From Nemertoderma westbladi (lineage: Eukaryota; Animalia; Xenacoelomorpha), in NCBI GenBank assembly GCA_032718475.1, contig JAUCBJ010000865.1:1-64000 (forward strand): a stretch of 64,000 nt of DNA, in the 5' to 3' direction. The notes below the pieces were generated by a model. That model was given only the letters and a program-made list of their open reading frames with translations. It ran no database searches and had not been told where the DNA came from. A program made the position numbers and the translations under genes. Each line of letters opens with the position of its first letter. Position 1 is the first letter of the stretch. This document shows positions 7,001 to 64,000 of this stretch, piece by piece.

Positions 7001-7043
7001 ACCACGCTGATGAGACCCAGTAAGGTCGAAACGCGTACGTGGT
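7001..7043 (+). ncRNA. Minimal type I hammerhead ribozyme, copy 3
   Basis: Identical to 6169-6211. Confidence 0.85.
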
Positions 7044-29611: not shown

Positions 29612-30433
29612 CTAAATATAAAACAAGTTTATAAATCTTTATTCTACAACCTCAAATACATTTCTAAATCTTACATAACTATCGCATACATATCCTATTT
29701 AGCCGCAACTAAGCTATAAACATATCCCAATCACTAAATAGTTAAAAAAAATAATCATTTTACTCAATTTTAACAGGAAACTAAAATATTCAGTTTACTC
29801 TAAAATATTATCACTGAAATTTATTAATTATCACTAAAGGGAGTTAAAATTGAGTTTAGTAATAAGTAATATTCGGTATTCTGGTGGATAAATATTTTAG
29901 TGACCAAATAACTATTTTGCTACCCCTAAAAAAATGTAACAACCAATTTATATAAGTTTGTGTTTAAAGTTACACATTTCAGTGGGCTGATCCGAGTGGT
30001 TTGCTACACGAACGAACGTAGTGAGTGAGAATCAAGTAACGAGCGTCAGCAGAACAATGTAAAGTACTTTGCAACAAGTATAAATGGACAGTCAAACTGT
30101 AGGTGGGCAGAGAGCCGATTATAATAATATGATAACTGTAGCCAATGTGTGAAGTAAAGGCCCATTATAATGTATGTAAAATAATAGACAACGGAAACGT
30201 AATAACAAGTTTCAGTTTCATATTAAAGAGTTCCTCTAAAGATATAAAGTCTCGTTACTCTACAGACTGTGCAGCTGTAATCTGATATGTTATTGTTCCA
30301 TAAGGTTATAATAATTGGCAATATAACAACACGCCGTTAATAACGGCGTTAAGTAATGTTACAATTTAGGGAGATAAAGTACTTTACAACACGTACGTCA
30401 TGTATTTTTACCCGAAATTTCTAACATCCTTAC

Positions 30434-39061: not shown

Positions 39062-39563
39062 TTTATTAAAATAAACAGATAAAAAAACATCCAACTGTTA
39101 AATATCAGAATCAGATTAGAAATAGGACAGTAGGACTTAAACCGTGATAAGAACGACTGAACGATGAACTGGAGCTCTGACAATTCGCCCCCTTGCGGCA
39201 GACATTGGACATGGGAACTATCTGACTATATAAGTCCTGAAGTCTGTCTGTGTGTAGAATTTCTATACCTGTGACCTGTGATACACTACACTACATGTGT
39301 ACTAAAATTGGCAACAAACAAACAACAGAACAAACAAACTAATAACATAATAATACAGTAGCTGGAGGAACCCGAGCAGTGCTCCAATGATAAAATTTAA
39401 ATTTTATTTCTTTTTAATCTCGAATTAGAATTGCATGTTTTTACTTATATAGGCCTACTGTATATTTATCTTAGCTAACTGTAGTTGTCTTTCGGGATAT
39501 TTGCAATTTTTACGTTATTATTGTATTTCATAATCCGAATACAGGAATAATAGGGCAGTATAC

Positions 39564-43867: not shown

Positions 43868-44149
43868 TTAAGCGATCATCAAAAAATATTAATTCGATTA
43901 TTAAAATCTATACATTTGATCTTATTTACAATCATATTAGATAATTCATAATTATGAATTTATTAAAAATAATAAATTGTAAACTGTTTCTAATCGATTA
44001 TTCGAAGACAAGAAACCATATATCTATCCAATAATTTCAGTTTTCTGCAAATTGAGGTAGTGTCGGGTGGTTGGGGTTGGTGGTTTATGTAAATGCAGTT
44101 TAATTTTTGACAGTTTAATATTTGTTGTTGGGATGTTGTTGGTTGTTAG

Positions 44150-45956
44150 TATAGAATTATATTCCCTAAATGCCGTGGATTTTCAAAATTTTATTTTATT
44201 CGAATTAACTTTGTAAAGATTGCTTTGAGTTCTCATTAGTATTGGTTCTATCTATTGTGTATCTATCGGTCAAGTGGTTCAGTAGCTCAGTTGGTAGAGC
44301 GTTGGAAATTATATGTGTAGTAGGTATCGAGTTCGAATCCTAGTAAGTGCGAATTATTTTTTGTGCAGAATTTCAACTCATTTAAATTAACCGCTACAAA
44401 TTAATTGCATTTGTCTGTACCAATAAGGCTGTAGTTATTTGATTGTAACCAATGTCGTGCAAGTTATATATTAGCTGGACCAATAAGCTATCTTTAAAAC
44501 CTTGTTAGAACCCATAGAACAATCGAGAATTTTCTCGATTGATTGCGGCACAAATTTGCTATATAAAGGTGCGATTTGTTCATTAGTTATCAAAACTTAT
44601 TCACATCTTATATCTCAATCTTTCACAGATTATCTTATCAATATTCTGTCGTGCTTAGTTTATTCTCAGATTACATTGTATTATAATTGTGTCTTCTGTA
44701 ATAAAGTCAGAATATTCTCTCAGCTTTTCTGTTTTACTATGAATTCACTACGGTGAACAAACTCAGGGACAGGATGGCCGGCTAAAGATCGGGCCGCAGC
44801 AATGAACGGGAACATCACGGGAATGTAGACGAGAGACAACCCGCAATACCATTTAGAGTTATTCGCCCATCGCCTGAAAGGTTAGACAGCGTTCGATCCT
44901 TGCTACCTAAGTATAAGACCAAAAGATCAAAAGGTAGACGTAGTGACACGCTGCAAGCCTAAAATTACATCATAGGGACTGTACTGTCTTGATTCAGGAA
45001 AACCCACAGTAGACCTTCACATTCCTACGGGGGAGGGAGAGAGAGCAGATACTAGTACGCAGATAGGACGTAGGCACACCGGTACAAGGCATACACATTG
45101 GTTAGGGTGCAGCAAACTGTACGCTTAACTCTTGCTAAGTACAGGTGCGTGTGCGACTATTTGCAGTACGACAGTGTCCATTGCATCAGAACTTGTAGGC
45201 TAAGGGGGTTGCTGTGTTTTCACCTGAATTGGGATTGTGCCGTTCAGGCGGTAGGGCAGTTTACGCTAGGCGCAAATAAATTGAGGCTATCAGGGATATA
45301 CTAACATCTACCGTGTCCCCGCCAACGCCCTGATAGGAAGTTACCTGGACTACCTGGGTGACTAAAATTCTAGATAGGAGCCAGGATAGCTATTAGTACC
45401 CGTACGCCTACAGTAGTAAACTAACACATCTCTTCTTAGTATCAGGGACCTGGTACCTAAAATTGCCGAATTCTGGGCGTAGTATTAACCTTATGCCTGA
45501 ATTTGAGTCCTGGAAATACGCAAGAGGGGAAGGAACCTTATCATTCGTAAGTATTGGACCTACAAGTTACAAAATTAGAATATTCGTAAAATGCACACCG
45601 TACCCAGTAATTATATATGTGAAGGAGCAAAACTGTTTTGACCGTTCAGAATTAACACACGCGCGTTAGAAATTATTTACACCTCGAAATATATAAAATT
45701 AACTTTGTCCGTACTGTGCTTTGCCCGCTAGTTAGACATCTCCAAATCTGCTCTATACCTAGCTAGCGTCCCTTTGCCCAACCATATAAATCACACCGCG
45801 GCAAAGTATACGAGCCCCTTAGTCCGTCAGTGAGTCAGCCTGATTTTAGGATTCGCTGCGCGGGATTTTGTTTCATCGAAGTTTGTCTGCTCGTAGACTG
45901 TTTTCTGCCTCACTGGTTATAAGAGATCGATACTGCAATATATTCGCTTACTTAGA
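44150..45956 (+). repeat. 5' LTR (minimum extent; may continue to about 46390)
   Basis: Matches 62194-64000 with only about 2 substitutions seen by eye. It begins TATAG rather than TG. A possible end is CTCAACA at about 46390, before ACTTTGGT. Confidence 0.9.
44276..44352 (+). ncRNA. tRNA-like Pol III unit inside the LTR (second copy 62320-62396)
   Basis: A box TAGCTCAGTTGG with D-stem GCTC/GAGC, B box GTTCGAATCC, T6 terminator. Acceptor and anticodon arms do not pair, so it is not a functional tRNA. Confidence 0.6.
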
Positions 45957-46884
45957 GTTTACTGTTTTGGTGAGAAGGTCGGATTTATGATTTGATTTAC
46001 AAATTTTACAGTAAGATATTGCAGGTATTGTTACCGTCTCTTCCAATAGTAGGAATAGGCGTATCTCTTCAATTAGTAGGAATGTGTTTTACTGAACTAC
46101 GGTTCGGTAGGACTAAAGTTATTTGAAAATTTTGTATTTTGAGGTAAAAGTTTGTATTTGATTAGCTAAGTGCTAATTTTTTGAAATAAAATTTGATTTG
46201 AACCGCGTGTAAAATATTTTTGGAATTAAATACCGGTGTTTAAAAGGGTTTAAATACCATATTGTACCGGTACAAAAATTTTCGTAAAGTAAAACCTAAC
46301 TCTTTTGTTTTTCAGGATTCAGAACTCATTTCTAGACTGTAACGGGAGCAAGACCGTGTTTAGCAAGTTTGGGAGATAGATAACTCAACAACTTTGGTTG
46401 GGAAAATCGCGTTTCGTCCGCAACGTTAAAAACGGAAAGGTTCACGTTCGGTTTGTATCTGGGAATCTGTTTTTCTGGAGAATTATTGGAGTGGGTGAGT
46501 TCGAAAAGTTGCATAAATAAGTTAGGCATTACCGTATTAGTTAAAATTATTGTGGGTTCCACTGTCTCAAGTATTTATGCATTCCGTATGATTTCTTTGT
46601 TCATTGCTGAATTAGTCCGTATTATTGTATTTAATTTACCTTTTGATAACGCATATCGTTATCCGATTTATTTGTTATAAAATTGGCCGCTAGGCTAATT
46701 TTATTATATACTTATTCCGTGACATTTATTTGCTGTAAAATTGGCCGTTTAGGCTAATTTTATCCATCTGCTATAAAATCGGCCGGTAGGCTAATTTTAT
46801 AAGACTGTAATTAGTACCGTTTAGATATAAATACGGTAAACTCGATACTTTGACACTCACTTTACTTGACTTACAACTACCGAA

Positions 46885-49800
46885 ATGAGTGACAAACAAG
46901 ACTATACGAAGAACACACAAACCGACTATGACTCATGTGACGCGGATAAGTCAGCAGCGGAAGAACAACAGGGGAAGACTCGCGAGCCTACCGAACCTAC
47001 ACCGTGTGCGTCACCAGTACATCCAACGGGAGTACCGGATGCCGTAGTACGAGGCGACGGCAGGACCGAGGACTTTCTAACTGTTCCGCAACCTAGATAC
47101 AGGGAAACGGAAATGGTAAGTTCAGCAGGAAGTACAGAAAGTGTGGTTAGAAGCGTCGGAGGTTACATGGCGCATATTACCAGGAGTATTGGAGAAGGCC
47201 AACGCATATTAGACGGGTTGACCGCTCCGATGTCTCGATTCGAGTTCTACACCCTCCAGGTTAGAGTACAGAGTAAAGTATATAAGTCCGTAGATAATCT
47301 AGTTGGCCTACAAGATCTAGCTAGACAGAGACAGGACATGGATACTCAACTTAGAATCCTCGAGAAACTAATGATCACTAGAGAGAAACTGATTCAGTTT
47401 AAGTCGACGATTAGACAGATACAACAGGAACAAGCGGACCAGTTGTTAGGTGAGTCAGTTTCGGACGAATTATTACAACCCGAGGAAGAACAGGAACTGT
47501 ACCGACTGGATGGACAATTAAAACACCTGACGGACCACTTACGTATGTGCGGCGAAGACGTCGGAGATTGGGAAACCGTGCCGGAATATACGAGGGAAAC
47601 TTCACCCGTACAAATCGAATCAGCACCGGGAATACTGGACCAATCGTTGGTAAGTATTCGTAGCGAAATCTGCGAGGGAAGTATAGTCACGTCAGAAGTT
47701 GCTCGACAACAGCAAGAATTCCACCGACAACGACAAGAAATGGAAGAACAAGCTCAACTTCTAGTGATGCAGGCAGCAGTAGAGGAAGAGAAGCTACGCG
47801 TTGCGAATATAGCAAGAATCTCTCATCTACAGGAACAAGCTGAATTAGAAGCAGCTGAAGTAGAAAGGTTAGAAGTAGACATTGCCCGACAAGCGGCAGC
47901 GGCAGCGGCCGAGGTAGAGCGACGAGCGGCAGCGGCCGAATTAGAGCGACAAAACGCAGCGGCCGAGTTGGAGCGACAAACGGCAGCGGCAGCGGCCGAG
48001 GTAGAGCGACGAGCGGCAGCGGCCGAGTTGGAGCGACAAACGGCAGCGGCAGAATTACAACGAGAAAGGTTAGTTTCGGAGGCGCGGGCCGAAATGAAAA
48101 CACGACAAATAAAGGCTCAATCCGCTATACGACAAGCGGAGTTTGAGGCGCAACGACAACAAACGGAACAACGAGAGAAGACAGCTAAACTTCATTTCGA
48201 ACTCGAGAAGAAGGCGAGAGAATTAGCGAACGCTGAGGAAGATCTGGATCAAAAGGCCCGCGATAGATCGATGAGATCTCGTGACGGACATGATTTGGAC
48301 CAGTTAGAGGTAAGACATCGCCAAATTCAGGAACGGAAGAAGGAAGGAAGCGTAGGAGCACCCGGACGGGAACGACAATTAGTAAAAGACGTGTGTCAAC
48401 GATTCCCACAGGTAACTCATATGTTTGCACCGGTTACGACTAAGGAACCTGTTTCGATTGCGGGTAGTAGTGATATTTCTCCTATCCATGGTGCGACGGA
48501 ACACAGGTTTGTTATTCCGGACGAGTTTATACCGCCAAGAGCGACGTCGTCGCCCATTCCGAAAGTCAAGGTAAGTAACCCACCGATTACGGATCGTAGT
48601 AGTTTATTGACCGGACCCGCACTACTGACGACAAAACAGGTGAGTCCACCTTTGACACCTAAACCCGTAACACATTACGCTTATCCAATGACGTTTCGAC
48701 CTACAAGGCCCGTTGTTTCAAATGCTGTCATTCGCCCACCGAACCAGTTTACATCGCAATCTACGACTTCGAGGAAGACTTGTGAGCCTACCGAACAACG
48801 GAGAACAGTGGAGACGCGACCACCGAACCAGTTTACATCGCAATCTACGACTTCGAGGAAGACTTGTGAGCCTACCGAACAACGGAGAACAGTGGAGACG
48901 CGACCACCGAACCAGTTTACATCGCAATCTACGACTTCGAGGAAGACTTGTGAGCCTACCGAACAACGGAGAACAGTGGAGACGCGACCACCGAACCAGT
49001 TTACATCGCAATCTACGACTTCGAGGAAGACTTGTGAGCCTACCGAACAACGGAGAACAGTGGAGACGCGACCATTCAACCAGTTTACATCGCAATCTAC
49101 GACTTCGAGGAAGACTTGTGAGCCTACCGAACAACGGAGATCAGTGGACGATGTTCCGAAACGGAATGTTAGAATTCGAACGACGCAACGGACGCGAGCA
49201 CGTCGACCTCCATATCCAGATGATAGTAGTACTTCGAGCGAATCGGATTACCCGAAACGCGAGGTATTTAGAACAGGGGCGGCTGATGAATATAAACGCG
49301 AGCGTTCAGACAACTCCTTTGCAGATAATCCTCCACAGAATACACCAACACAGAAGGCGTTACAACCAACGGACGCAATTAGTACACAACAGTTCGCCGA
49401 CATTCTGCGACCAGTTGTTAATAAGTTGGCTCAGATCGAGGAACGTCTGGAGGAAGGTTACACCGACAGTTCGAGAAATTCCGAATTCGAACACAATAGA
49501 CACCCGAAGGAACCACAAAGACCGGTACCTTCAAACCCCATATCGTATCAGGGAAAAGCGCCAAGAAGGGATATCAACCAGTGTACCAACCAAGGACGCG
49601 AAACTCTGAACGTTGCCGAGGAGATAGCGAAATTCGCAGCCAGACAGGGATTGCCGGTACAACAACCACCGAAGTTTTCCGGTAGCTCAAAACACTGGCA
49701 TACCTTCGTAGACTATATCGAATCCCAGATCGCCGTGTGCGCCTTTACATCACGGGAGAAGTTCAATTACCTGCTCCAAACGTTGTCAGGAGAACCTAAA

Positions 49801-50826
49801 CGTTTGGCGGAGACCTTCGTTGGTGTACCGGACGCTTTCGAACTAGCGTACGATCGTTTGACTTCGATATACGGAGGTACAGTGAGTATGGCCAGGTCAG
49901 TAATAGAGGAACTCTGTAAGGGAGGGGCTATCACTAAACCCGTCGACTTACTAAAACTGGCTGACGAGATTAAGAACGCTATCACTACCTTAAGATCAAT
50001 TGGACAACTTGATTACGGGAATACCCCTACAGTTCTATTAAAGATAATAGGACGACTCCACCATCGACTCCGTCGGGAGTGGAGGAAGGTCGAATACCAG
50101 CGAGAGGAGCGAGGGGGATTCCTAAAATTAGAAGATGTGTACCTTTTAATATCCAGGGAGGCGGTAGTAGAAACTCGATCTAACTATACCGACCAGCACA
50201 TCGTGGCAGAAGGGATCACACTGCCATCCTCCAACCGACAAAAACCCCAGACAACATCCACAAAGACGGCCACTTACGCCACACCGACGGAATCACGACA
50301 ATTCTCAGACGGTAATAGAGTATCTGCGCCCATTGGGACGAAACAGACGAGACAGCAACTCAGCACCGACTTCAACGGCTGCCAATACTGCGAACATCTA
50401 GGTAAGCGGTATATTGGTCACAAGTTACGAGGTTGTCGACAATTTCGCGAGTTGAACTCGGAAGAACGACGGCTGCAGATACGGCCACTGGACTCTTGTT
50501 GGCGGTGTACGCGACACGGACACGTCCGTAAGGATTGCCCAAATACCGACACTTGTCCATCCTGTGGACGCAACCACGACGGTCTGCTCCACACAGACAG
50601 CCACACGCCGACGAAACGCTTCGCCAGGGAACACCCGGAAGCAGCAGCGAGATGTGATGCGGCTTACCGAAAACGAGAATCGAAAACGACTCCAACCTTC
50701 GTGACCCATATTGAGGATTGCTTCTCAGAACAATCCGGATCGTCGGACGAAGAATCAGAAGACGACGATGTATATTCCAATGGAGACGAACAACCGTCGA
50801 TACCTAAAGAGGTGAGGTCTCTATAG
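46885..50826 (+). CDS. BEL/Pao Gag, 1313 aa
   Basis: Long coiled-coil region; DUF1759-like PKFSG..W..F...EKFNYLLQTLSGEP; triple knuckle CQYC..H..C, CWRC...H....C and CPSC...H...LH. Confidence 0.9.
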   Translation: MSDKQDYTKNTQTDYDSCDADKSAAEEQQGKTREPTEPTPCASPVHPTGVPDAVVRGDGRTEDFLTVPQPRYRETEMVSSAGSTESVVRSVGGYMAHITRSIGEGQRILDGLTAPMSRFEFYTLQVRVQSKVYKSVDNLVGLQDLARQRQDMDTQLRILEKLMITREKLIQFKSTIRQIQQEQADQLLGESVSDELLQPEEEQELYRLDGQLKHLTDHLRMCGEDVGDWETVPEYTRETSPVQIESAPGILDQSLVSIRSEICEGSIVTSEVARQQQEFHRQRQEMEEQAQLLVMQAAVEEEKLRVANIARISHLQEQAELEAAEVERLEVDIARQAAAAAAEVERRAAAAELERQNAAAELERQTAAAAAEVERRAAAAELERQTAAAELQRERLVSEARAEMKTRQIKAQSAIRQAEFEAQRQQTEQREKTAKLHFELEKKARELANAEEDLDQKARDRSMRSRDGHDLDQLEVRHRQIQERKKEGSVGAPGRERQLVKDVCQRFPQVTHMFAPVTTKEPVSIAGSSDISPIHGATEHRFVIPDEFIPPRATSSPIPKVKVSNPPITDRSSLLTGPALLTTKQVSPPLTPKPVTHYAYPMTFRPTRPVVSNAVIRPPNQFTSQSTTSRKTCEPTEQRRTVETRPPNQFTSQSTTSRKTCEPTEQRRTVETRPPNQFTSQSTTSRKTCEPTEQRRTVETRPPNQFTSQSTTSRKTCEPTEQRRTVETRPFNQFTSQSTTSRKTCEPTEQRRSVDDVPKRNVRIRTTQRTRARRPPYPDDSSTSSESDYPKREVFRTGAADEYKRERSDNSFADNPPQNTPTQKALQPTDAISTQQFADILRPVVNKLAQIEERLEEGYTDSSRNSEFEHNRHPKEPQRPVPSNPISYQGKAPRRDINQCTNQGRETLNVAEEIAKFAARQGLPVQQPPKFSGSSKHWHTFVDYIESQIAVCAFTSREKFNYLLQTLSGEPKRLAETFVGVPDAFELAYDRLTSIYGGTVSMARSVIEELCKGGAITKPVDLLKLADEIKNAITTLRSIGQLDYGNTPTVLLKIIGRLHHRLRREWRKVEYQREERGGFLKLEDVYLLISREAVVETRSNYTDQHIVAEGITLPSSNRQKPQTTSTKTATYATPTESRQFSDGNRVSAPIGTKQTRQQLSTDFNGCQYCEHLGKRYIGHKLRGCRQFRELNSEERRLQIRPLDSCWRCTRHGHVRKDCPNTDTCPSCGRNHDGLLHTDSHTPTKRFAREHPEAAARCDAAYRKRESKTTPTFVTHIEDCFSEQSGSSDEESEDDDVYSNGDEQPSIPKEVRSL
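48733..49149 (+). repeat. In-frame 84-bp tandem repeat x about 5 in gag (28-aa unit)
   Basis: RPPNQFTSQSTTSRKTCEPTEQRRTVET repeated almost identically. Confidence 0.95.
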
Positions 50827-51763
50827 GGGTGTCGACAGCAGGCGGCGGCGGACTCGTGAGGGTCTGGGGGCACGTTAAATTGTTGTTATAGTGCAAGGGA
50901 GTCACTGAAGGCCCTCGTGTCTAACGAACCATGAATTGCCATGGTGCCGTGGTATCGCCTAGTCGGCCTGTTGCCGTACTGCCAGTCCTGTACACAGTAG
51001 GGGTGGTGGCATGGTGTGATTTGTGGTTCATGTGGCGTGGACTATGTTTTGTATGTGGGCGATCAGTGGCAGTTTGCTTGGGGCTTGGATGGTTCCATTG
51101 ACCGTCAGCTGTTCCGTTTTTTTGATACTATATGTTATTGTCTCCATGTTCAGCTGATTGGTCTTTGGTGGCATTGGAATAAACCGTCGGGTCTTGAGCT
51201 TTCTGTTACTGTGGGTACGTGAGTACACGTGATTGTATGTGTGGCCACTGCGAGTGGGTATGGGAACCCTTGCCAGTTGGACAAGACGCCGCTGGTATTA
51301 GTAGGACCATACTTTACTGCACCCCAGCATACTTTGTGCACACAAAGTTATTTTACCCTGTCGGTAAAATAAGGTACTCTCGACTCTTTTCGAGTTTCAG
51401 TCGATACAATTTTGTCCCCTCTGATTTTGTCTTTCTCGATTTTGACCCCGATTTTGTCTTTACCCGATTATGTCATCTGTGTGTGCATGGTATGCGTCAG
51501 ATTTGTGTTTACCGTAGTGTACTTGATTTCGTGAACATCTGTTGAGTACACGTGTACAGGACGGGTAAGTGGTTACTTGTTCCTAGCTTTCGAGCTAGTC
51601 AGTATTGTTGAGGAACGGTGTCCCCTCAATACTGCCGGCGAGGCAGGTGAAAACGTGTCAAAATTCCAATGTTGGGTAGCACAAGCCCACGTGGGACAAG
51701 ACCGTCGGTTAGGCCCAAGGGCGACCTTGGTGCTCGATCGCTATCGACTGGTCCACCTGCCGG

Positions 51764-54700
51764 TTGACTCTTTGTTATACTTTGAGTTGGCTCAATGTAC
51801 AGTCAGGCCACAGTAAGTTGACAGTAGCCGCCCATCTGGCTACACGTTCGACGAGCTGTGCTGGTGTGATCGGGGGACCGAAAACAGAACCCGGGAAGCA
51901 TCAGGCCACCCTCCGGCCCGGTCTGATAATAACATCTGTCGGACTGGCCCCAAGGGTGGTGGAAACACGTCCGCCTCGTGGGTGCGCCTCCGGGAGGAGC
52001 CCAGAAGGACGAAAGCGCGCGCTTCTAACCACTGACCAACTGAAGGGATTCAGTGTAATCCCGATTAAGATCACTGGCACAAAGGGGAGTAAGAGGATCT
52101 ACGCGATTCTAGATTCAGCCTCATCTCACAGTTACGTGGATGAAAAGATAGCTGACGTCGTAACGGATCTCAGACAAGGTAAACACGTCAGTTATACAGT
52201 AAGTAGTATGCACGGCCAGCGTGCAATACCAGTGACACGAGTTAAGTTGGACTTAGACTCTCTTCTTCCAAAATCGCAACACAGCGAGAGGGAGAGGTCT
52301 TTGTTGCCCTTTAGAGATTTAACCTTTGCGGCCACGAAGGACTTTAGTAACCTACTAGGTCCAGTGCCGGAACAATCTCTGGAGGACCGTAAGTATTTCA
52401 GACACCTTGGTGTACCCGAATGTCCTGTCAATTATAGATCGGTAGCAATGCTGATCGGGACGGACCAATTCAACCTACATCAGGTGTGGGAAACCAGACC
52501 ATCGGCAGTTGTAGCAGGAAACGCATACGCCTGCAGAACGCCGATAGGGTGGTATACTCGAGCGCCTGTGCGCACACTAGACGTAAGTGACGAGGAAGAC
52601 GATGTACAGAGTACATGCAGTTTATTAACTACAAACTCAATTCATTCCTTTTCACACGACGTGAACCATACTACACTACAGTCGACAAAACATGACAGAC
52701 GTGTAACTAGTATGATAAGTCACAAGGAGCAGCTAACCCACCAGGTGAGTTTAGAACTTGGGGAGAAGACGAATCAGCTAGAGATTCCATCGACGACAGA
52801 TGATAGGCTTGCGAGTCTACCTACCCCAATAACCTCAACAGTGCCCGTCGATATCGACGATGACGCGTTGAAAATTCATCAGTTGGAACAAGCCGCCTTG
52901 GACAAAGAATTAACGGAGAAGACTATCAGGTGGTTAGAACAAGATACAGCTGAACCTGGTAGCTACGAACCTTGTATGTCGGAACAGGAGAAACAATCTC
53001 TGAAGATCATGGAAGAGACTATCCGACAGACGGAGGACGGACATTACGAGGTGGGTATGTTATGGCGTAGCCAAAGTCCTAAACTTATAAATAACTACCC
53101 ACTGGCTTTAAGACGTCTACACTCAATACGACAACGTCTATTAAAAGACGAGAAAGCCCATCTGCAGTACAACACTCAGATGGAGACGTATTTGACTGAA
53201 GGATACGCTATCCGAATGACTAACCCGGAGCGAGTGACCGACCAGACATACTACCTGCCACATCACTATGTGAGACACCCCGACAAACCAGATAAAGTAC
53301 GCGTAGTCAATGACTGTGCGGCTCTATTTGAGGGAATGTCCCTCAATAGTGAGTTGATGGATGGACCGAACATGAATAATTATCTTATGGGGGTGATTAT
53401 GCGCTTCTGTCAGCGTCAAGTAGCCTTTACTTGCGACGTTGAAGCGATGTTTCACCAAGTAAAAGCGTTAGAGCGAGACAGAGACAGTTTGCGGTTTCTC
53501 TGGTATCCGGAAGGGGACTTGAGTCTACCACCAGCGACTTACCAAATGCAAGTTCGCGTTTTCGGTGCCAGAGACAGCCCAAATTGTACGATGTACGCCT
53601 TGAAGCAAGCCGCTAGAGATCAGAAACATCTGTATGACCCAGAGATAATTAGAATTGTAGAACGTGACTTTTACGTTGATGACGGATTACAGAGTTGCGA
53701 CACAGTAGAACGTGCTACAACAGTAGCACATCAATTACGGGACTGCTTGGCGGGCGGAGGTTTTAACCTCACCAAATTCGCCTCAAACAGTGCCGAATTA
53801 GTTGACTCATTCGGAACTACTGAGCGTGGAGGTGGTGACATAGACCTAGAGTTCGAACCACTACCGACGACTAAGGTGTTGGGACTCTTTTGGGACCCAA
53901 ACACAGACAACTTTCGAGTGAAGGTGAGACTGGACAGTCAAGGGAACACGCTGACCAAGAGATCATGCTTGTCAAAATTGAGCCGATTGTTCGATCCGTT
54001 AGGATTCATCAGTCCAGTGATACTGCAAGCCCGCATTTATATGCGCAGTATATGGAAAGATGGACTAACATGGGACGAGCCGATCTCATCAGACCAAGTG
54101 GACTTATGGAAGACCTGGGAGGCGGAATTATCTTCGCTAGAGGATTATTTCATACCCAGGGTTTACTTTCCATTACAGAGTACATTTCCTGACAACTTGG
54201 AACCACACTGTTTTTCTGACGCCAGTGACAACGGTTTTTGTGTGGCAGCGTATTTGCGCAGACAAGTAGAATCGGACGAGTTCGATGTTTCGCTCATTAC
54301 TTCTAAGGCTAAGACCATGCCTACTAAGTATATGACGACACCACGAGCCGAGCTACAAGCCGCGACCCTGTCAACCACCATCGTGAACCTCATACAGACA
54401 GAACTACAGTCGAGTTTACAGATATTTTATTGGACTGACGCGACGTTGGTTTTATTTTACATAAACAACGACACACTCGAATTCAAGACATTCGTAGCTA
54501 ACCGTCGCGCGGAAATTCTAGACCGATCAATAAAAGAGGATTGGCGACATTGTCCCGGACCACAAAACCCAGCTGATATTGCGTCGCGAGGAATGATGCC
54601 TGAGGAATTCTGTAAACCGGAGAACAAAGAGTTTTGGCAACACGGACCCCAGTTCTTGCAGAAATCGACACAAGATTGGCCTCCGTTATACGACAACAAG

Positions 54701-56905
54701 TCCAACACCATTCCTAAGGACGCCGAAATCAAGAAACCAAAAAAGGGGAAGACAAAGAAAAGGACGACAGCGACTAAACTCAAGAAAAAACCGAAGGCGA
54801 AATGGAAGGATATAACTTCAAAGGTTAAGAGAGGAAGACTTGCGAGCCTTTCTAAACCAGACATATCGCCAGACGGTCAACCAGATACGTTACCAGACGT
54901 ATCGCCAGACACATTACTAGACAGTCGACTAGACACTAGTAACGTACTGACGAATAATAAAGCCGCAGTTTCCCTATTGGAGCGGCCTTGTATTGACAAA
55001 CTACCAATTTTGACGCACTTGAGCAACCATAAGCATGGTGAAACCTCATGTATTACAGATGTGGGTAGTACCTACGCTAATGTAAATACAGGTGTTACTT
55101 TGCGCTCAAGAGACATACCGAACTTACAACCTATAGTGAGACCTGGGATTAATGTCGGCAGGAAAATAAGTTTACCGAAACCTGCTGACCCCATAGAGTT
55201 CAAACCACCATTAACGATCGACTTACAAAGTACCGACAATCAAGGTAAGAGGACAAAGGGGGACAAATTACTTGTAGACCCGGACGGATCAACAGTCAAC
55301 AAGGGAATACTTACCGGCGGACCCGTGGGCCCTTCTAGTAATTCAAAACCTTCCAAGTTCTCCATTGACTTACCTGATGACGTCACAAATACTTACGTCG
55401 ACCGTATCGTAAACTTAACAGACTCTTGGTCAAACGCTTGCCGAAAATTAGCGTGGATTGTACGTTTCGTACAATACGTTAAAGGCAAACGAGACTTTAC
55501 ACGTCGACTTACATTGGCTGAGATTGACAGGTGTGAGATTAAATTAATTCGCCATTACCAACTGCGATATTTCGCGCGCGAATTCACATCTATAAATCAA
55601 GGTCAACCAATCAAGTCGTCACCGATACTGAGTTGGAGTCCGATTATTTATAATGGCTTGATTTGTCATAAATCTCGGCTTCAAAACATTGACTTTAACA
55701 CGAACTTTAGGTACCCAATAATAATACCGCAACACCACGAACTACAACGTGCAATGATATTGGACGCACATTTACATCTGAAACACGCTGGAAGACATCA
55801 CTGTCTTTCCTACTTACGTACTAGATTTGTATTAATTAGACCCAGTAAAGCATTAAGTTCCGTGACACGTACGTGTATTATTTGTAAAAAGGTACATTCT
55901 AGAATAGGTACCCAAGAAATGAGTGAACTACCACAAGCACGACTTCAAGCATTCAAACCACCTTTTACAGAGACTGGAATTGATTGCTTTGGTCCCATAC
56001 ATACGAAACGTGGACGTATACTAGTAAAACGCTGGGGACTGATTTTCACATGTATGTCCAGTAGGGCAGTTCACATTGAACGTGTGATGGATCTTTCCAC
56101 CAACGCGTTTATACTAGCACTGCGGCGATTTATCGCTAGACGCGGACTAGTAAAATGCTTGTACTCAGACCAAGGGACAAACTTTGTTGGTGCTCGGAAT
56201 GAAATTGCCAGAGCCTTTAAGAAATTAGATCATGATCAAATCTCAAACGAACTGCAACCTCACAAGATTGTTTGGAAGTTCAATCCTCCAGATAGTCCTT
56301 GGAGAGGCGGAGTCTGGGAGAGACTGATTAGATCTATAAAGACAGCAATGGCAAAGGTCATTCCAGTAAACCACATATTAACAGACGACCAACTGACAAC
56401 ATTGTTTGTTGAAATCGAGGCAATACTAAATACTAGACCAATAGTATTAGTACCCGATGACAAACAATCTCAGTTTGCTTTGACACCGGCACACCTGCTA
56501 ATGCAGGCACCGACCACATTGACGCCGATTTCCATTCCAATGGAAAGCGATAGCTACGGTAGAAAAGCGTGGAAAATCACGCAACTACTAGCTAACAAAT
56601 TCTGGGAAATATGGCAAAACCATTATTTGCCCTCTATTTCTGCCAGAACAACTTGGTACAATAACACCCGCGCATTAAAGCCGGGAGATCACGTGCTGTT
56701 GGCAGAAGTGAATCTAAAAAGACGCTTCTGGATAACAGGTGTCATTTTAGCCACACATCCATCTATGGATGGAGTGACAAGAACTGTGACAGTACGGACA
56801 ATTGACGGTCGTACAGTAGACAGACCGACTCAACGTCTCGTACTTCTTGAAGAGACTCGTAACGAGTCTGGAGACTACAAATCTCCACCTAATACTAATA
56901 AATAA
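51764..56905 (+). CDS. BEL/Pao Pol (protease-RT-RNaseH-integrase), intact; true start unknown
   Basis: AILDSASSHSYV protease; YYLPHH, KVRVVND, DVEAMFHQV and FYVDD RT; FSDAS, PRAEL, YWTD and NPADIASRG RNase H; H..H..CIIC, GIDCFGP, SDQGTNF, GGVWERLI and C-terminal DGVTRTV integrase. Confidence 0.93.
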   Translation: MTLCYTLSWLNVQSGHSKLTVAAHLATRSTSCAGVIGGPKTEPGKHQATLRPGLIITSVGLAPRVVETRPPRGCASGRSPEGRKRALLTTDQLKGFSVIPIKITGTKGSKRIYAILDSASSHSYVDEKIADVVTDLRQGKHVSYTVSSMHGQRAIPVTRVKLDLDSLLPKSQHSERERSLLPFRDLTFAATKDFSNLLGPVPEQSLEDRKYFRHLGVPECPVNYRSVAMLIGTDQFNLHQVWETRPSAVVAGNAYACRTPIGWYTRAPVRTLDVSDEEDDVQSTCSLLTTNSIHSFSHDVNHTTLQSTKHDRRVTSMISHKEQLTHQVSLELGEKTNQLEIPSTTDDRLASLPTPITSTVPVDIDDDALKIHQLEQAALDKELTEKTIRWLEQDTAEPGSYEPCMSEQEKQSLKIMEETIRQTEDGHYEVGMLWRSQSPKLINNYPLALRRLHSIRQRLLKDEKAHLQYNTQMETYLTEGYAIRMTNPERVTDQTYYLPHHYVRHPDKPDKVRVVNDCAALFEGMSLNSELMDGPNMNNYLMGVIMRFCQRQVAFTCDVEAMFHQVKALERDRDSLRFLWYPEGDLSLPPATYQMQVRVFGARDSPNCTMYALKQAARDQKHLYDPEIIRIVERDFYVDDGLQSCDTVERATTVAHQLRDCLAGGGFNLTKFASNSAELVDSFGTTERGGGDIDLEFEPLPTTKVLGLFWDPNTDNFRVKVRLDSQGNTLTKRSCLSKLSRLFDPLGFISPVILQARIYMRSIWKDGLTWDEPISSDQVDLWKTWEAELSSLEDYFIPRVYFPLQSTFPDNLEPHCFSDASDNGFCVAAYLRRQVESDEFDVSLITSKAKTMPTKYMTTPRAELQAATLSTTIVNLIQTELQSSLQIFYWTDATLVLFYINNDTLEFKTFVANRRAEILDRSIKEDWRHCPGPQNPADIASRGMMPEEFCKPENKEFWQHGPQFLQKSTQDWPPLYDNKSNTIPKDAEIKKPKKGKTKKRTTATKLKKKPKAKWKDITSKVKRGRLASLSKPDISPDGQPDTLPDVSPDTLLDSRLDTSNVLTNNKAAVSLLERPCIDKLPILTHLSNHKHGETSCITDVGSTYANVNTGVTLRSRDIPNLQPIVRPGINVGRKISLPKPADPIEFKPPLTIDLQSTDNQGKRTKGDKLLVDPDGSTVNKGILTGGPVGPSSNSKPSKFSIDLPDDVTNTYVDRIVNLTDSWSNACRKLAWIVRFVQYVKGKRDFTRRLTLAEIDRCEIKLIRHYQLRYFAREFTSINQGQPIKSSPILSWSPIIYNGLICHKSRLQNIDFNTNFRYPIIIPQHHELQRAMILDAHLHLKHAGRHHCLSYLRTRFVLIRPSKALSSVTRTCIICKKVHSRIGTQEMSELPQARLQAFKPPFTETGIDCFGPIHTKRGRILVKRWGLIFTCMSSRAVHIERVMDLSTNAFILALRRFIARRGLVKCLYSDQGTNFVGARNEIARAFKKLDHDQISNELQPHKIVWKFNPPDSPWRGGVWERLIRSIKTAMAKVIPVNHILTDDQLTTLFVEIEAILNTRPIVLVPDDKQSQFALTPAHLLMQAPTTLTPISIPMESDSYGRKAWKITQLLANKFWEIWQNHYLPSISARTTWYNNTRALKPGDHVLLAEVNLKRRFWITGVILATHPSMDGVTRTVTVRTIDGRTVDRPTQRLVLLEETRNESGDYKSPPNTNK

Positions 56906-57561
56906 TTAGGAGTTTACAAATAGATTTCCACGTACCTGTACACCGTAGTAAGGACAGCGGTAGATTTCCATTGTCTTTATATGTGAACATTGAGGGTAGT
57001 ACCCTTATGTGTCACATAGGAGCGGGATTTGTAGGTATAAGAAATGGAATTCTACTTGGAACTCACAATATTGAGACATTTTCGAAATTTTAGACAATCC
57101 ATTTGGATTTGAAAATTTTTAAAATTTTCTCCAGTGAATAGATTTCAGGGTACAGTCGGGTGGAACTTAAAATTAGAGAAACAAGAGAGGAAGACTTGCG
57201 AGCCTTTCTTAAAATTTTAATTAAATTTTACACGGTCTTGTTTCAATAAGTTACGTCAAAATAGACTCCCCTATATTTATTACTAATTCTTGATTGCTTA
57301 TTTTCTGATAATAGTTTGGGATCAAAAAGTGAGTATTTTAGACTCACAGCCAGTTTAGCCCAAATTCGTTTTACTTCGGCAAAAAATTTTAGATAAGAAG
57401 CAGCGTGTCATTAAAGAAACCCTAGATCTTAGGCTATGGGTAGGAGGTTAGAGCGTTGTCGAGCCCAAAGGGCAGACGAAACTCTCACGTCTCCTCACAA
57501 CTAACTACAAACTCTGTTGTATTCCCTCTAGTAGTAATGATTATGTAACTACACCCTAATT

Positions 57562-60500
57562 ATGGAGAAAGGGATACAAGGAGAGCCGAGATGGGGATAT
57601 GATATCCAAGAGGAGGCAGCAGCGCCATTCGAAAGATTTGGAGCCAAGGATTACACTATATTTGGTATAAAAGAATTATCGGAAAGTACAGCGAAACTCG
57701 CGAGAACTAAATATGACTCGAATGTATTAAAGAGAAGGCAAAACGCATTAAACGAAAGAATCGAAAGTTTGCGCCAAACCTTCAACGAACTTTACCCGTA
57801 CGATGCTTTGTGTGATACGGGAGACATTAGCGAAGACCCCGATACTGAAATTAGTCGTTTGTATCATACCATGCAATACCTAAAGGCGCACGAACCTATG
57901 CCCGCGGTACGCGATGAATTCGATGGAATGCATCTTTACAGACGAACTCGAGGGGACGATAGAGAAACCAAGGAAGCATTTTCAGTTTATAAACTTTATT
58001 ATCAATGCGGTTCTTGTATGCGCGAACAACGAAATGCGATTCCGATGCGTTTGAATAAGGAAAATCCCGAACCGATATTGGCGAGGTGTTCGAATCATCA
58101 ACAACTACGCTACCAGGAAGGAGGGTATCCTTTATCAAATCCATATCATTCATTTGCTATGACCGGACCAAAGGCGGGAGAAACTGTCATTTACCCACCT
58201 AAGGTTGTTGAACCCGATGTATTTGAACTTACGCTGGACGAGGCGAATCAGTCAACCCGCGAAAAGAAAGAAGCTCTTAGCCTATACAGAGCCTACAAGG
58301 CTTTCGAGAAAGGTGAGATGGAAGAATGGGGTGGAAGACTCGCGAGCCTACCTTGCCATTGGACGTCACACGATCAAACTTCAGCTAAGGAGATGACACC
58401 GGAAGTTTTCGAGAGCATAAACTTTGCTCAAAACGTTATTCAGAGACTACAGATTGCATCCCCGGAGAGGCCAAGAGAAATGCAACCGTATAGTACTTCA
58501 GCTACGAAACCATTGAGTACGACACTCAATTTCCCTATTAGTATACCAGTCCGACAGGATACGACGTACGAAATACCCATCGTGGATCATCCAGAAATCA
58601 TTTCAAACTTGGAGTTTCTTCCTGCAGTTGTTTTCAGCGATATGAGTAAGATATATGATTTACGTAGACATATTACTCAAAAGGTCGTGAACAACGTTCC
58701 ACCTCATATCCAAGATTTTAAGGAACTGGATAGAGCTGGTGCCGACATAGCTCCGAGTAATCTGAAAGGATATCTAACCAAGACGATTCGTTTATGGATT
58801 GGAATCGGAACCTTCGAGTCGGATACAGATATTGCCGCAGATTGGCGAGGTAAGGTTATTCGTTTCGATGAGGATAAGGATATAGAGAAGATTTGGCAAC
58901 CTTCGGAAGAATTGTTGGACGAATGGACTAGGACGTTTAGATCGTTTCAGGAAAACGGTTATATGTTTTACGATAACGAGGGCGGCAGTCATCAGCAGAG
59001 TTTGACTTCTAAGACTATACAGATTAGAGCGGCGGACGGAGTTCTGCACGTTTTCAGTAGACAGAGGAGCGACAAACGAATGCCGATACCTCCAGCGAAT
59101 ACAAAGCGACACCATCTTATCACCGATATAGTAAAGAAGATGGACCAAGCTTGTAATATTGACGCTAGAATGCTACCGAAGATGGTAAGAAACATGATTT
59201 TAGATAAAACTGTTGTAAAGGTTGGATCAGGAGTAAGGGAGGATTTAATTAGCGACTTCGCCGGCATGACGGACAGCGATGACCGACTACCGACACCATA
59301 CGTCGACACTCGACCTCTTATTCTGTGGTCTATAGAACAGGGATATTTTCGTGAGTATAATACTCAGAAGACTGGAACTGGATACATTTCCTACCTGTTA
59401 TTCAATTGGGATTATAAGGAAGGTAAAAGAAACAAGTATATTGAAACTTATGGAGAAGGTGATACTCCAGATATGAGTGAGTTTGAATCACAGCTTAAAT
59501 GGAGAGGGTGCGTGTATTGGGCTATTACGTCACCTCCAAGAGCGGTCTTACAATATTATTTAGCAATAGAGTCGTCAGTGAATGTTTGCCTAATCGCCGA
59601 CATCGTGTCTCGGACTCTCAAAAGACATCCACTTTGTCTCGGAGAAGATCATACGTTCTACATGGAAGGGAGAATTCGTACCGACGTGTTTAGACGATTC
59701 CTTGAACCCTTCTACAACTCCGACGCTCAGTGTAATGCCTTTACTCGAGCAGGATTTAGTATATTTCGAGACGTGTATCTTCGCTGTGCGGGATCTCTTA
59801 TCGAAAGACCATCTATGTTTACATTGTTACCCTATGAAGGAGAACGTATTGTGGAAATTACGGATGAATCACGGCAGACGCGCGCGCCTATCGGTCACCT
59901 CGGTGATGATTTCAACGTAACTACTACGATCGCCGACGATCCTTTAGAGGAACTTCTTGAAATAGAAAGGAACCTCCCGAAGAAATCTCAGACGGAGATT
60001 CGACAACTTGAAGCAACAGATGCTATAGTTTGTATACAACCTTCAGAAACCTACCAACCCATAGACCCAGATGATTACGATTATAGTATGGGAGGAAGCG
60101 CTCGACCGATTGGAGATCTTATATACGAACGAGTGTGGTACCCTGCTAATACGATGTGTAGTAAATGTGGCGTCGCTGGACATCATATGGCAAAGTGCAG
60201 TGGAAAGCACATTACTACGACTCAGCTAATCTGTGGATGGTGTGGGGATCAAGGGTCTCATACCTTTTATACTTGCTGGAGATTTATGGCTCAATGTACT
60301 TATTGCAATATAAAGGGACATCGAGCATCTGAATGCCAACTAAGAGACATACCTTATGAACACGAATCTGTAAAACTCGTGAGGAAGTTATTTGATGAGT
60401 GGGAAGATTTAGCCGATGAACATGTATCAGCACAAAGAAGACGGTTTCCGATGAGAGCGCATCTCGGATTTTGGGCGGTAAATCCCCAGACGATGATGTC

Positions 60501-61287
60501 GGAAGGATATATCTCCGCTATGCCCCAATATGACGAACTTATCGAGGTTGTCGATATTTTGCCCCACGACAGCGGATTCCGAGTGGTGCGAGAGTATCTG
60601 TTACAGATTCACCCAGATAACAAAAACACGTGGAATTTTCAGAAAGTCGTTAATCGGATTACGTATGGTGAATTCGATCGTTTCCGAACTGAAAAGCGGA
60701 ACAAGGGAGCTTGGTTAACCGTCGCATGGGCGTACCGGGCCGCGTTTTACCACAAACGTATACGAGCGAGCGTATTCGAGGAAGAAGAGGTCCTAGAGGC
60801 GACGAATATACCAGCCACTCCGGTTGCGCCGTCTGCACGTCACCCTCGGGAGGACGGGCAGGGTAGGATCATACGGGTCCAGAAAGTGGGCCAACAATTG
60901 AAGAAAATTATTAATGTAGAAGAACGCAAGGGAGTTGAGCCGACTATTCGAGTTACTCGGGATACGGTATCACTTCCAAGAGAACCGGTAGGAGGATCGG
61001 GACATACACCAGCTGATCAACAGGGGGCGCAAGCTACTCTTGGGTCTGCGTCGTCCGCTTCTCACGCGTTCCCAGACGTTCTACCAACTGTAGTGACGAC
61101 TGATCGGTCACGAGGAATTGGTCGAGGTTTTGGGATGCCAAATAGACGAATTTGCGAGGAAATAGTTGCACCGTCTCTCAACGTCCCAAGTAAACCAGTG
61201 ACTCGCCCCATTAGTCCCATATCGCGAGCAAAGTCACCTGTGCGCAGTTTTCGAGGACGCGGCAGGGCTCGATCAACTAAGCGATAA
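57562..61287 (+). CDS. Element-borne ORF3, 1241 aa: DEDDy 3'-5' exonuclease-like domain, 3 CCHC zinc knuckles and RG/basic tail
   Basis: Intact ATG-started ORF between pol and the 3' LTR. Motifs FYDNEG, TIQI, LP..V..MILD..VVKVGSGVREDL, YVDT and YLAIE; knuckles CSKCGVAGHHMAKC, CGWCGDQGSHTFYTC and CTYCNIKGHRASEC. Confidence 0.75.
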   Translation: MEKGIQGEPRWGYDIQEEAAAPFERFGAKDYTIFGIKELSESTAKLARTKYDSNVLKRRQNALNERIESLRQTFNELYPYDALCDTGDISEDPDTEISRLYHTMQYLKAHEPMPAVRDEFDGMHLYRRTRGDDRETKEAFSVYKLYYQCGSCMREQRNAIPMRLNKENPEPILARCSNHQQLRYQEGGYPLSNPYHSFAMTGPKAGETVIYPPKVVEPDVFELTLDEANQSTREKKEALSLYRAYKAFEKGEMEEWGGRLASLPCHWTSHDQTSAKEMTPEVFESINFAQNVIQRLQIASPERPREMQPYSTSATKPLSTTLNFPISIPVRQDTTYEIPIVDHPEIISNLEFLPAVVFSDMSKIYDLRRHITQKVVNNVPPHIQDFKELDRAGADIAPSNLKGYLTKTIRLWIGIGTFESDTDIAADWRGKVIRFDEDKDIEKIWQPSEELLDEWTRTFRSFQENGYMFYDNEGGSHQQSLTSKTIQIRAADGVLHVFSRQRSDKRMPIPPANTKRHHLITDIVKKMDQACNIDARMLPKMVRNMILDKTVVKVGSGVREDLISDFAGMTDSDDRLPTPYVDTRPLILWSIEQGYFREYNTQKTGTGYISYLLFNWDYKEGKRNKYIETYGEGDTPDMSEFESQLKWRGCVYWAITSPPRAVLQYYLAIESSVNVCLIADIVSRTLKRHPLCLGEDHTFYMEGRIRTDVFRRFLEPFYNSDAQCNAFTRAGFSIFRDVYLRCAGSLIERPSMFTLLPYEGERIVEITDESRQTRAPIGHLGDDFNVTTTIADDPLEELLEIERNLPKKSQTEIRQLEATDAIVCIQPSETYQPIDPDDYDYSMGGSARPIGDLIYERVWYPANTMCSKCGVAGHHMAKCSGKHITTTQLICGWCGDQGSHTFYTCWRFMAQCTYCNIKGHRASECQLRDIPYEHESVKLVRKLFDEWEDLADEHVSAQRRRFPMRAHLGFWAVNPQTMMSEGYISAMPQYDELIEVVDILPHDSGFRVVREYLLQIHPDNKNTWNFQKVVNRITYGEFDRFRTEKRNKGAWLTVAWAYRAAFYHKRIRASVFEEEEVLEATNIPATPVAPSARHPREDGQGRIIRVQKVGQQLKKIINVEERKGVEPTIRVTRDTVSLPREPVGGSGHTPADQQGAQATLGSASSASHAFPDVLPTVVTTDRSRGIGRGFGMPNRRICEEIVAPSLNVPSKPVTRPISPISRAKSPVRSFRGRGRARSTKR

Positions 61288-61389
61288 AAGGGAGGGCAAG
61301 GGTGGACGGAAGACTCGTGAGCCTTTCTTATGATTTGTGATTTATTTGAATTATATGTTTTATATTTAGAAAGTTTTGTATTCTGAAAG

Positions 61390-61960
61390 GGACTCATATT
61401 TAGTAAAAACTTATATTTTATATTTGTGCTTATTCCAAACTTATGCAATTTGTATTGTTCCGAATTTATGAAATTTAGAAAGTTTAGAAGGAACTTATAT
61501 TTGAAAGATTTATGTTTCATATTTGAGATGCAAAGGTTTATATTATTCTAAACTTATGCAGTTTATATCTATATTTAGTAAGACTACCCAAAAGAGAGTT
61601 TATATTTGTAAGAATTTATATTTATATTTGTAATTATTCCGAACTTATACAATTTATATTATTCCAAACTTATGCAATTTGTATTGTTCCGAATATTATG
61701 CAATTTATATTTTATAAGTAGTATTTGTACCTAAAGAGAAAGTTTTATAGACAGAAAATTTTGTGCTCAGAAAGACTCATATTTGTAATTATTCCAAACT
61801 TATGCAATCTACATTTAGGTACGAAAGTATTTGTAATTACTTGAATTTATGCAATATTTGGGATGCAATAGTAGATGGAAGACTCGCGAGCCTTTCTTAT
61901 TGTTTTCATTTATTTGTATTTGTAATTGTTTGAATTTATGCAATATTTGAGATTCAATAG
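61390..61960 (+). repeat. Degenerate AT-rich tandem repeats in the element 3' UTR
   Basis: Recurrent ATTCCAAACTTATGCAATTT and GACTCATATTTG units. Confidence 0.6.
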
Positions 61961-62193
61961 ATTTATATTGGTGAATTTAATTTAGATTTATATTGTACTT
62001 ACTTAGTAAAACCTTAAATACGTAAAGTTTGAATTTGTAATTATTTTTGTATCGAATCATTACGTAGAAAGGAAGTATTGTTTGAAACTTAATTGTAAAT
62101 ATGTAAGTACGCCCTAAGTATTCTATAGTTTGATTGATTATTGGTGAAAACCGTATATTTTATGCACGATAATATCCTGTTTTCATGGAGCGG

Positions 62194-64000
62194 TATAGAA
62201 TTATATTCCCTAAATGCCGTGGATTTTCAAAATTTTATTTTATTCGAATTAACTTTGTAAAGATTGCTTTGAGTTCTCATTAGTATTGGTTCTATCTATT
62301 GTGTATCTATCGGTCAAGTGGTTCAGTAGCTCAGTTGGTAGAGCGTTGGAAATTATATGTGTAGTAGGTATCGAGTTCGAATCCTAGTAAGTGCGAATTA
62401 TTTTTTGTGCAGAATTTCAACTCATTTAAATTAACCGCTACAAATTAATTGCATTTGTCTGTACCAATAAGGCTGTAGTTATTTGATTGTAACCAATGTC
62501 GTGCAAGTTATATATTAGCTGGACCAATAAGCTATCTTTAAAACCTTGTTAGAACCCATAGAACAATCGAGAATTTTCTCGATTGATTGCGGCACAAATT
62601 TGCTATATAAAGGTGCGATTTGTTCATTAGTTATCAAAACTTATTCACATCTTATATCTCAATCTTTCACAGATTATCTTATCAATATTCTGTCGTGCTT
62701 AGTTTATTCTCAGATTACATTGTATTATAATTGTGTCTTCTGTAATAAAGTCAGAATATTCTCTCAGCTTTTCTGTTTTACTATGAATTCACTACGGTGA
62801 ACAAACTCAGGGACAGGATGGCCGGCTAAAGATCGGGCCGCAGCAATGAACGGGAACATCACGGGAATGTAGACGAGAGACAACCCGCAATACCATTTAG
62901 AGTTATTCGCCCATCGCCTGAAAGGTTAGACAGCGTTCGATCCTTGCTACCTAAGTATAAGACCAAAAGATCAAAAGGTAGACGTAGTGACACGCTGCAA
63001 GCCTAAAATTACATCATAGGGACTGTACTGTCTTGATTCAGGAAAACCCACAGTAGACCTTCACATTCCTACGGGGGAGGGAGAGAGAGCAGATACTAGT
63101 ACGCAGATAGGACGTAGGCACACCGGTACAAGGCATACACATTGGTTAGGGTGCAGCAAACTGTACGCTTAACTCTTGCTAAGTACAGGTGCGTGTGCGA
63201 CTATTTGCAGTACGACAGTGTCCATTGCATCAGAACTTGTAGGCTAAGGGGGTTGCTGTGTTTTCACCTGAATTGGGATTGTGCCGTTCAGGCGGTAGGG
63301 CAGTTTACGCTAGGCGCAAATAAATTGAGGCTATCAGGGATATACTAACATCTACCGTGTCCCCGCCAACGCCCTGATAGGAAGTTACCTGGACTACCTG
63401 GGTGACTAAAATTCTAGATAGGAGCCAGGATAGCTATTAGTACCCGTACGCCTACAGTAGTAAACTAACACATCTCTTCTTAGTATCAGGGACCTGGTAC
63501 CTAAAATTGCCGAATTCTGGGCGTAGTATTAACCTTATGCCTGAATTTGAGTCCTGGAAATACGCAAGAGGGGAAGGAACCTTATCATTCGTAAGTATTG
63601 GACCTACAAGTTACAAAATTAGAATATTCGTAAAATGCACACCGTATCCAGTAATTATATATGTGAAGGAGCAAAACTGTTTTGACCGTTCAGAATTAAC
63701 ACACGCGCGTTAGAAATTATTTACACCTCGAAATATATAAAATTAACTTTGTCCGTACTGTGCTTTGCCCGCTAGTTAGACATCTCCAAATCTGCTCTAT
63801 ACCTAGCTAGCGTCCCTTTGCCCAACCATATAAATCACACCGCGGCAAAGTATACGAGCCCCTTAGTCCGTCAGTGAGTCAGCCTGATTTTAGGATTCGC
63901 TGCGCGGGATTTTGTTTCATCGAAGTTTGTCTGCTCGTAGACTGTTTTCTGCCTCACCGGTTATAAGAGATCGATACTGCAATATATTCGCTTACTTAGA
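62194..64000 (+). repeat. 3' LTR (truncated by the window end)
   Basis: Near-identical to 44150-45956; preceded by a short purine-rich GGAGCGG. Confidence 0.9.

Follow-up and report, generated by a model that had tools for sequence, protein, structure and literature searches.

A BEL/Pao long terminal repeat (LTR) retrotransposon of Nemertoderma westbladi carries a 20-bp near-palindrome at nine independent sites, which we read, with a probability of roughly 0.45, as a family-specific RNA hairpin with a YGYG loop (Y, pyrimidine), putatively bound by the CCHC knuckles of Gag or of the product of a third open reading frame (ORF), ORF3. The element lies in contig JAUCBJ010000865.1, of which positions 1 to 64,000 were analysed (hereafter the window, 64,000 bases in all), and the motif was searched with the pattern GGAAGACTYGYGAGCCTWYC. 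The motif resembles a dispersed packaging or recognition signal, and the first interpretation of it is partly supported, with an RNA hairpin placed ahead of a DNA site.

Copies of the motif and their placement

A sequence-only reading of the window had counted 12 dispersed copies. All 11 plus-strand positions that it listed were exact GGAAGACTYGYGAGCCTWYC matches, and the inverted copy announced near 52803 was present at 52802-52821 with 2 mismatches. The sequences are real, but those at 48773-49109 belong to a single tandem array of five 84-bp units, which leaves eight independent sites; a degenerate copy at 59873 (3 mismatches), absent from the earlier list, is the ninth. With up to 3 mismatches allowed, the window held 16 matches at 13 distinct sites (shuffle mean 0.01, maximum 1, 100 shuffles). 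As already remarked in that reading, host DNA (44,148 bases) and the visible LTR (1808 bases) contain no copy. A further partial copy, reported near 50850, has the 10-base GACTCGTGAG core at about 50846, but nothing else is shared and its weight-matrix score of 5.2 bits is background-like. CTYGYGAG octamers at 57697 and 60376 were not counted as copies, their arms being absent. The copies are as follows.

46973..46992, plus strand: motif copy 1, gag codon 35, CGCG loop, translated KTREP
48736..49148, plus strand: 84-bp tandem array in gag with five copies (48773, 48857, 48941, 49025, 49109), TGTG loop, KTCEP
50846..50865, plus strand: partial copy in the gag-pol interval, GACTCGTGAG core only, of doubtful membership
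52802..52821, minus strand: inverted copy in a pol linker insertion, the sense strand giving a predicted hairpin with a UGCG loop
54833..54852, plus strand: GRLASL copy with TGCG loop, located in an insertion of the linker between RNase H and integrase, its flanks complementary over a long stretch
57189..57208, plus strand: non-coding copy in the pol-ORF3 spacer, position 9 (57197) T/C polymorphic among sister copies
58333..58352, plus strand: copy in ORF3, GRLASL, CGCG loop
59873..59892, plus strand: degenerate copy in ORF3, 3 mismatches, upper-stem T-A changed to G-C on both sides
61308..61327, plus strand: copy in the 3′ untranslated region (UTR), 20 bases past the ORF3 stop, CGTG loop
61877..61896, plus strand: second 3′ UTR copy, CGCG loop

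Across all 7 independent exact copies, a core of 16 bases varied at two Y positions only. The motif as a whole is a near-palindrome, with a near-dyad symmetry that spans all 20 bases; of the 11 exact copies, just 3 have the perfect form CTCGCGAG. The motif is independent of reading frame: six of the nine independent sites are coding, in two phases, and three are non-coding, and the translations are those noted before (KTREP/KTCEP in gag, GRLASL in pol and ORF3). In an alignment of 40 homologues, both pol copies fall in stretches that are gapped in essentially all of them (occupancy 0-0.02; a residue in 1 of the 40 at most) and hence sit where the protein tolerates them. The forward-frame motif peptides were found in none of the 120 listed BEL pol homologues, all of which are at most 42% locally identical; one reverse-frame 5-mer of the motif peptide was present among these 120 (in P0122).

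We then compared contigs of sister copies over 57120-57290, around the non-coding copy at 57189 (210 contigs from run X1, 3 from X2, 51 from X4 and 0 from X5, which may be an RNA run; X1 and X4 sample one and the same family). At a share of at least 1%, these 171 non-coding bases contained a single substitution, T>C in position 9 of the motif (57197), and five indel rows, all outside the motif. From the element-wide rate at 5% share, 8.3 (X1) and 9.4 (X4) substitutions were expected, or 5.4 and 6.1 for the inner 111 bases only (depletion P 0.0003-0.016). In a diverged 393-base contig, assumed to be the identical record in both comparisons, the 129 bases surrounding the motif carried 5 substitutions and the preceding 174 carried 20 (P 0.02). 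The claim that the constraint lies on the nucleotide sequence is thus supported by the two frames together with the non-coding copies, by the placement in pol insertions and by the low variation at 57189.

The gaps between sites (1800, 3693, 2031, 2356, 1144, 1540, 1435 and 569 bases) were more even than random (P 0.03-0.04, strict sites). P was 0.004 for sister copies without about 1.2 kb of the gag-pol interval, and 0.0007 with the partial copy included, the latter being a post hoc choice.

A by-product of replication would be one way to such a pattern: a pause or template-switch hot spot of reverse transcriptase (RT) copying itself together with insertions, kept uniform by conversion and free of any selected function. 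Outside the core, 54833 and 57189 have short exact runs in common, as do 46973 and the array, and the three non-coding copies (up to 6 bases on the left and 8 on the right), and copies are located in lineage-specific insertions and on both sides of ORF3. However, homology ends within 8 bases of the core, whereas the core itself is near-invariant, and no longer flank homology between copies passed P<0.02 in a shuffle test. The depleted variation near 57189 and the over-dispersed spacing also speak against a by-product, which we judge improbable.

Folding of the sense strand

The predicted stem pairs G1-C20, G2-Y19, A4-U17, G5-C16, C7-G14 and U8-A13, with a mismatch at A6.C15 and a YGYG loop, and would be lengthened in some copies by copy-specific flanks. 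In this simple register six of the eight stem pairs were formed in 8 of 8 sense copies; the A6.C15 mismatch was invariant, and position 19 alternated between C and U opposite G2. In the copy at 59873 U8-A13 was replaced by G-C, with a change on both sides of the stem, and the inverted copy at 52802 read on the sense strand was again a predicted hairpin. All 5 loop changes counted on the sense strand were C>T (the array contributes two, the others being one that 54833 and 57189 share, one at 61308 and one at 52802; P about 0.02), and in the family-wide variation of sister copies G>A was at least as frequent as C>T. The observed/expected ratio of CpG was near 1 (host 0.99, element 1.14), with no sign of a methylated genome; methyl-deamination is therefore an unlikely cause of the C>T loop changes, and methylation-driven decay was ruled out as the source of the Y positions.

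Flanking sequences were examined by exchange between copies. Own flanks paired better than swapped ones (7 copies, P 0.006-0.014 with flanks of 12-20 bases; P 0.03-0.04 for the 6 copies without 57189), an advantage equalled by 1.7-4% of 300 nearby-flank controls, and the advantage of sense over antisense folding was equalled by 0-2% of 300 controls. Rfam covariance models gave no match in 44000-64000 at E<=5. The sequence-only reading had offered a cis-acting RNA hairpin or a protein site; several modest lines now favour a sense-strand RNA hairpin, but its stability is ordinary. These tests are mutually non-independent.

Several observations weigh against the hairpin or weaken the evidence for it. 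Only 1 of 10 copies had a hairpin z-score better than -2 relative to shuffles, and 9-27% of controls folded as well as the motif copies. In a 120-base context the upper-stem probability was below 0.25 in 5 of the 7 sense copies tested; two registers compete, one with a 12-base loop dominating at 54833 and 57189, and three of the seven copies showed neither fold. The flank-swap test was designed after the flanks had been inspected, and with flanks of 8 bases it did not reach significance (P 0.12-0.23). At 57120-57290 conservation extends far beyond the motif and lacks a matched short motif-free control stretch, and the even spacing may merely reflect one copy per inter-domain linker, part of it being possibly imposed by domain lengths. 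Template-switch copying alone would be expected to give the sense orientation, whatever the function, and the 20-bp dyad symmetry also suits recognition by a dimeric DNA-binding protein. Finally, in Rous sarcoma virus (RSV) the UGCG loop matters for binding of the nucleocapsid protein (NC) and not clearly for Gag specificity or packaging, according to the available part of PMC5035970.

The main rival is indeed a double-stranded DNA site for a dimeric protein, either element-encoded and VANC-like or a host factor, that would keep the long element transcribable from sites spaced a couple of kilobases apart. The near-dyad symmetry of all 20 bases and the weak hairpin energies agree with it; the even spacing fits a spreading chromatin effect, and the motif is element-specific, in the same orientation and partly tandem-amplified, like VANC motifs in the accessible portion of PMC5735166. 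A symmetric site, however, should take C>T and G>A alike, and every loop change was C>T on the transcribed strand. The two-sided change at 59873 would weaken both half-sites yet preserves the hairpin, while flank pairing and sense bias are unnecessary for DNA binding. The visible LTR is without a copy, and Pfam recognised no DNA-binding domain in gag, pol or ORF3. The VANC-like branch of the earlier proposal fits less well, with CpG undepleted and copies that are mostly coding and dispersed rather than clustered, and we hold a DNA site to be rather doubtful.

Alternatively, the copies could pair mutually, through kissing loops or 20-base duplexes, thereby dimerising or folding the long RNA much as dimer-initiation hairpins do in retroviruses. 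The 12-base loop, closed by G1-C16 and G2-C15, contains purines and, after them, a self-complementary octamer, its dominance concerning 2 of 8 copies tested (probability 0.8-1.0), and all C>U variants remain self-complementary via G.U, which G>A variants would not. On the other hand, self-pairing of the array variant yields no more than -0.8 kcal/mol, against -13.1 for CGCG, the A6.C15 mismatch is never repaired, and the conserved positions 17 and 20 are left unexplained in this register. Mutual pairing thus appears unlikely. A last alternative, to which we give very little credence, is that plus-strand synthesis of such a long genome is primed internally at the sites, as at central polypurine tracts: of 108 bases in the left flanks, 77 are purines (P 0.0002), and the sites are in sense orientation with 2-kb spacing. 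However, the conserved part is neither a purine run nor similar to the sequence preceding the 3′ LTR, and one copy is inverted.

The carrier element and the candidate readers

For a protein that would bind the hairpin, the element offers two candidates. Its main features are the following.

44149..45956, plus strand: visible part of the 5′ LTR, true right end at or beyond 45956, no motif copy
46885..50826, plus strand: gag ORF encoding DUF1759 and, at 50380 and 50497, two CCHC-type knuckles; candidate motif reader
51713..56905, plus strand: pol ORF, stop to stop, with protease-like region, RT, Pao RNase H/Peptidase_A17, integrase and DUF5641
57562..61287, plus strand: ORF3, 1241 residues, with a DEDDy-like 3′-5′ exonuclease domain (about 58966-59570), three CCHC knuckles (60157, 60232, 60295) and an Arg/Gly-rich tail
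62193..64000, plus strand: 3′ LTR, extending past the window end, no motif copy

DUF1759 gag, Pao Peptidase_A17, integrase and DUF5641, present in that order (Pfam), assign the element to BEL/Pao, and 637 pol homologues were obtained at E<=1e-30, with best local identities of 31-42% among the 120 listed. The direct LTRs at 44149 and 62193 are 99.89% identical (2 mismatches in 1808 visible bases), so that the element is young; its length exceeds 19.8 kb. Their shared sequence opens with GTATAG and without a common TG, which makes the left boundary uncertain, and the right end is outside the window.

Five CCHC-type knuckles are encoded by the element, two in gag and three in ORF3. By sequence, ORF3 resembles a DEDDy exonuclease to which three CCHC knuckles are joined, and it is a candidate motif reader. 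Aligned with two relatives, it matched the ExoI D-x-E and the ExoII D, while ExoIII is Y-x3-E versus the Y-x3-D of DEDDy. The middle part matched, at 0.92, an Atlas cluster of 3′-5′ exonuclease type in which 50% of the members are assigned to DNA_pol_A_exo1, and whole ORF3 had no Pfam match. The search for homologues gave 0 matches among 5506 near-length candidates, and 4 weak ones among 1.84 billion representatives, 2 of these knuckle-only; PDB searches returned only weak knuckle and EXD2 matches (best E 0.038). An AlphaFold model with a predicted local distance difference test score of 30 was not used. The layout of ORF3 (DEDDy-like domain, acidic linker, three knuckles, conserved tail) is common to the unnamed proteins P0125 and P0127, with which it forms a small orphan family.

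Other parts of the element showed further particularities. From the gag stop to the pol frame there is about 0.9 kb (50827-51712), and sister-copy contigs in all four runs compared are without about 1.2 kb of the interval; the extra segment carries the partial motif copy, filling the otherwise largest inter-site gap. AT-rich repeats of 25-37 bases, which have length variants in sister copies, occupy 61396-61830 between the two motif copies of the 3′ UTR. A tRNA-like stretch near the start of both LTRs (44275-44370 and 62319-62414; RNA polymerase III A box at 44283, B box at 44331, then a T run) was not called by ARAGORN or Rfam and, judged by these boxes, could be an RNA polymerase III promoter or an insulator. 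The element family is abundant and diverse in the host, with about 1370 variable places at 5% share over 44050-64000; contigs about 81-82% identical to the element point to sister subfamilies, and four sequencing runs contain 62-67% of the element's words.

Host genes at 27306-39097 encode the largest subunit of RNA polymerase II, in three large exons, and a xylosyltransferase that seems to lack introns and whose best matches are only 36-41% identical. Remnants of a further LTR element (RT, integrase) at 16975-19995 and fragments from an RT with DUF6451 at 21281-22360 are both motif-free. A 420-bp tandem repeat at 6130-7231 (2.7 copies) has a CTGATGA...GAAA core at 6175, 6587 and 7007, which we take to be hammerhead-ribozyme-like, of a retrozyme- or Penelope-like kind; Rfam gave no gathering-level match for this repeat. 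MITE-like (miniature inverted-repeat transposable element) inverted repeats and 15-bp palindromic tandem arrays were seen at 40503-41605, 5328-5740 and 14138-15333.

Possible role and relation to known systems

In the RNA-hairpin reading, copies would have spread during reverse transcription as patches of 20-30 bases, as the short runs shared beside the core suggest, probably via template switching, and would have been retained wherever the protein tolerates an insertion. In the YGYG loop two guanines would be available to CCHC knuckles, much as those of the RSV UGCG loop are to NC, and at intervals of 1-2.5 kb the 20-kb genomic RNA would bear a handle by which it could be selectively packaged, compacted or exported. 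A bolder version, which we hold to be doubtful, is that a giant LTR retrotransposon wrote a near-invariant tag into every dispensable gap, at most about 2.5 kb apart, and that ORF3 or Gag reads these tags to tell self from other RNA. If true, a retrotransposon would here mark its own RNA sequence-specifically and at dispersed sites; in LTR retrotransposons, the search for cis-acting RNA signals is usually directed to the element ends. A long, near-invariant tag in coding sequence, at roughly regular intervals, would show by what means a very large retroelement genome is selected, compacted or protected. With an exact short target and with two candidate readers, the function of an accessory ORF that joins exonuclease and knuckles can also be tested directly, using short RNAs and isolated domains.

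The literature searched, mostly open-access texts without supplements, contained no description of a motif of this kind for a BEL/Pao element, and the motif scan of viral contigs gave 0 matches. Twenty-nine metagenome loci with one exact match each were taken as chance: none had a tblastn match to the element proteins, and one had a second match at 3 mismatches.

A third ORF with a DEDDy-like exonuclease is known in the bdelloid LTR elements Juno and Vesta and in Terminons, according to the accessible text of PMC5408684, which contains no mention of a dispersed motif. Unlike theirs, the ORF3 described here has a BEL/Pao carrier, 1241 residues and three CCHC knuckles. CERV of the C. elegans element Cer1 and HIV Rev, with its Rev response element (RRE), are accessory export factors of LTR elements; the likeness is an accessory protein that could handle unspliced genomic RNA, and no repeated cis motif was seen in the available sections of PMC10309623.

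The VANC motifs of Arabidopsis VANDAL elements are likewise family-specific, in the same orientation, partly tandem-amplified and beside an accessory ORF. As far as the consulted part of PMC5735166 describes them, these are 8-9 bp DNA sites, dense in the non-coding regions of a DNA transposon, that counter DNA methylation; by contrast, the motif here is a 20-bp near-palindrome with 6 of 9 sites coding, over-dispersed, in a retrotransposon and in a genome without CpG depletion.

For RNA, the NC zinc finger of RSV binds G residues of the UGCG tetraloop of stem-loop C in Psi (available part of PMC5035970), and the likeness lies in the predicted UGCG/YGYG-loop hairpin together with the CCHC knuckles encoded here. 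Psi is, in the same portion of that article, a single region of the 5′ leader, whereas the motif copies run from gag codon 35 to the 3′ UTR. No copy lies upstream of codon 35, hence none in the leader, unlike the retroviral dimer-initiation hairpin with its single 5′-leader site. The dispersed packaging signals of single-stranded RNA viruses (MS2, parechovirus; also the hepatitis B virus pregenome) are similar in that many stem-loops, in the present case predicted ones, with a shared motif occur along the genomic RNA, in coding sequence too; theirs are short and degenerate and bind coat protein, as set out in the accessible part of PMC6281560. The present motif, known from sequence alone, differs from them in a near-invariant 16-base core, in its only about nine sites and in its LTR retrotransposon carrier.

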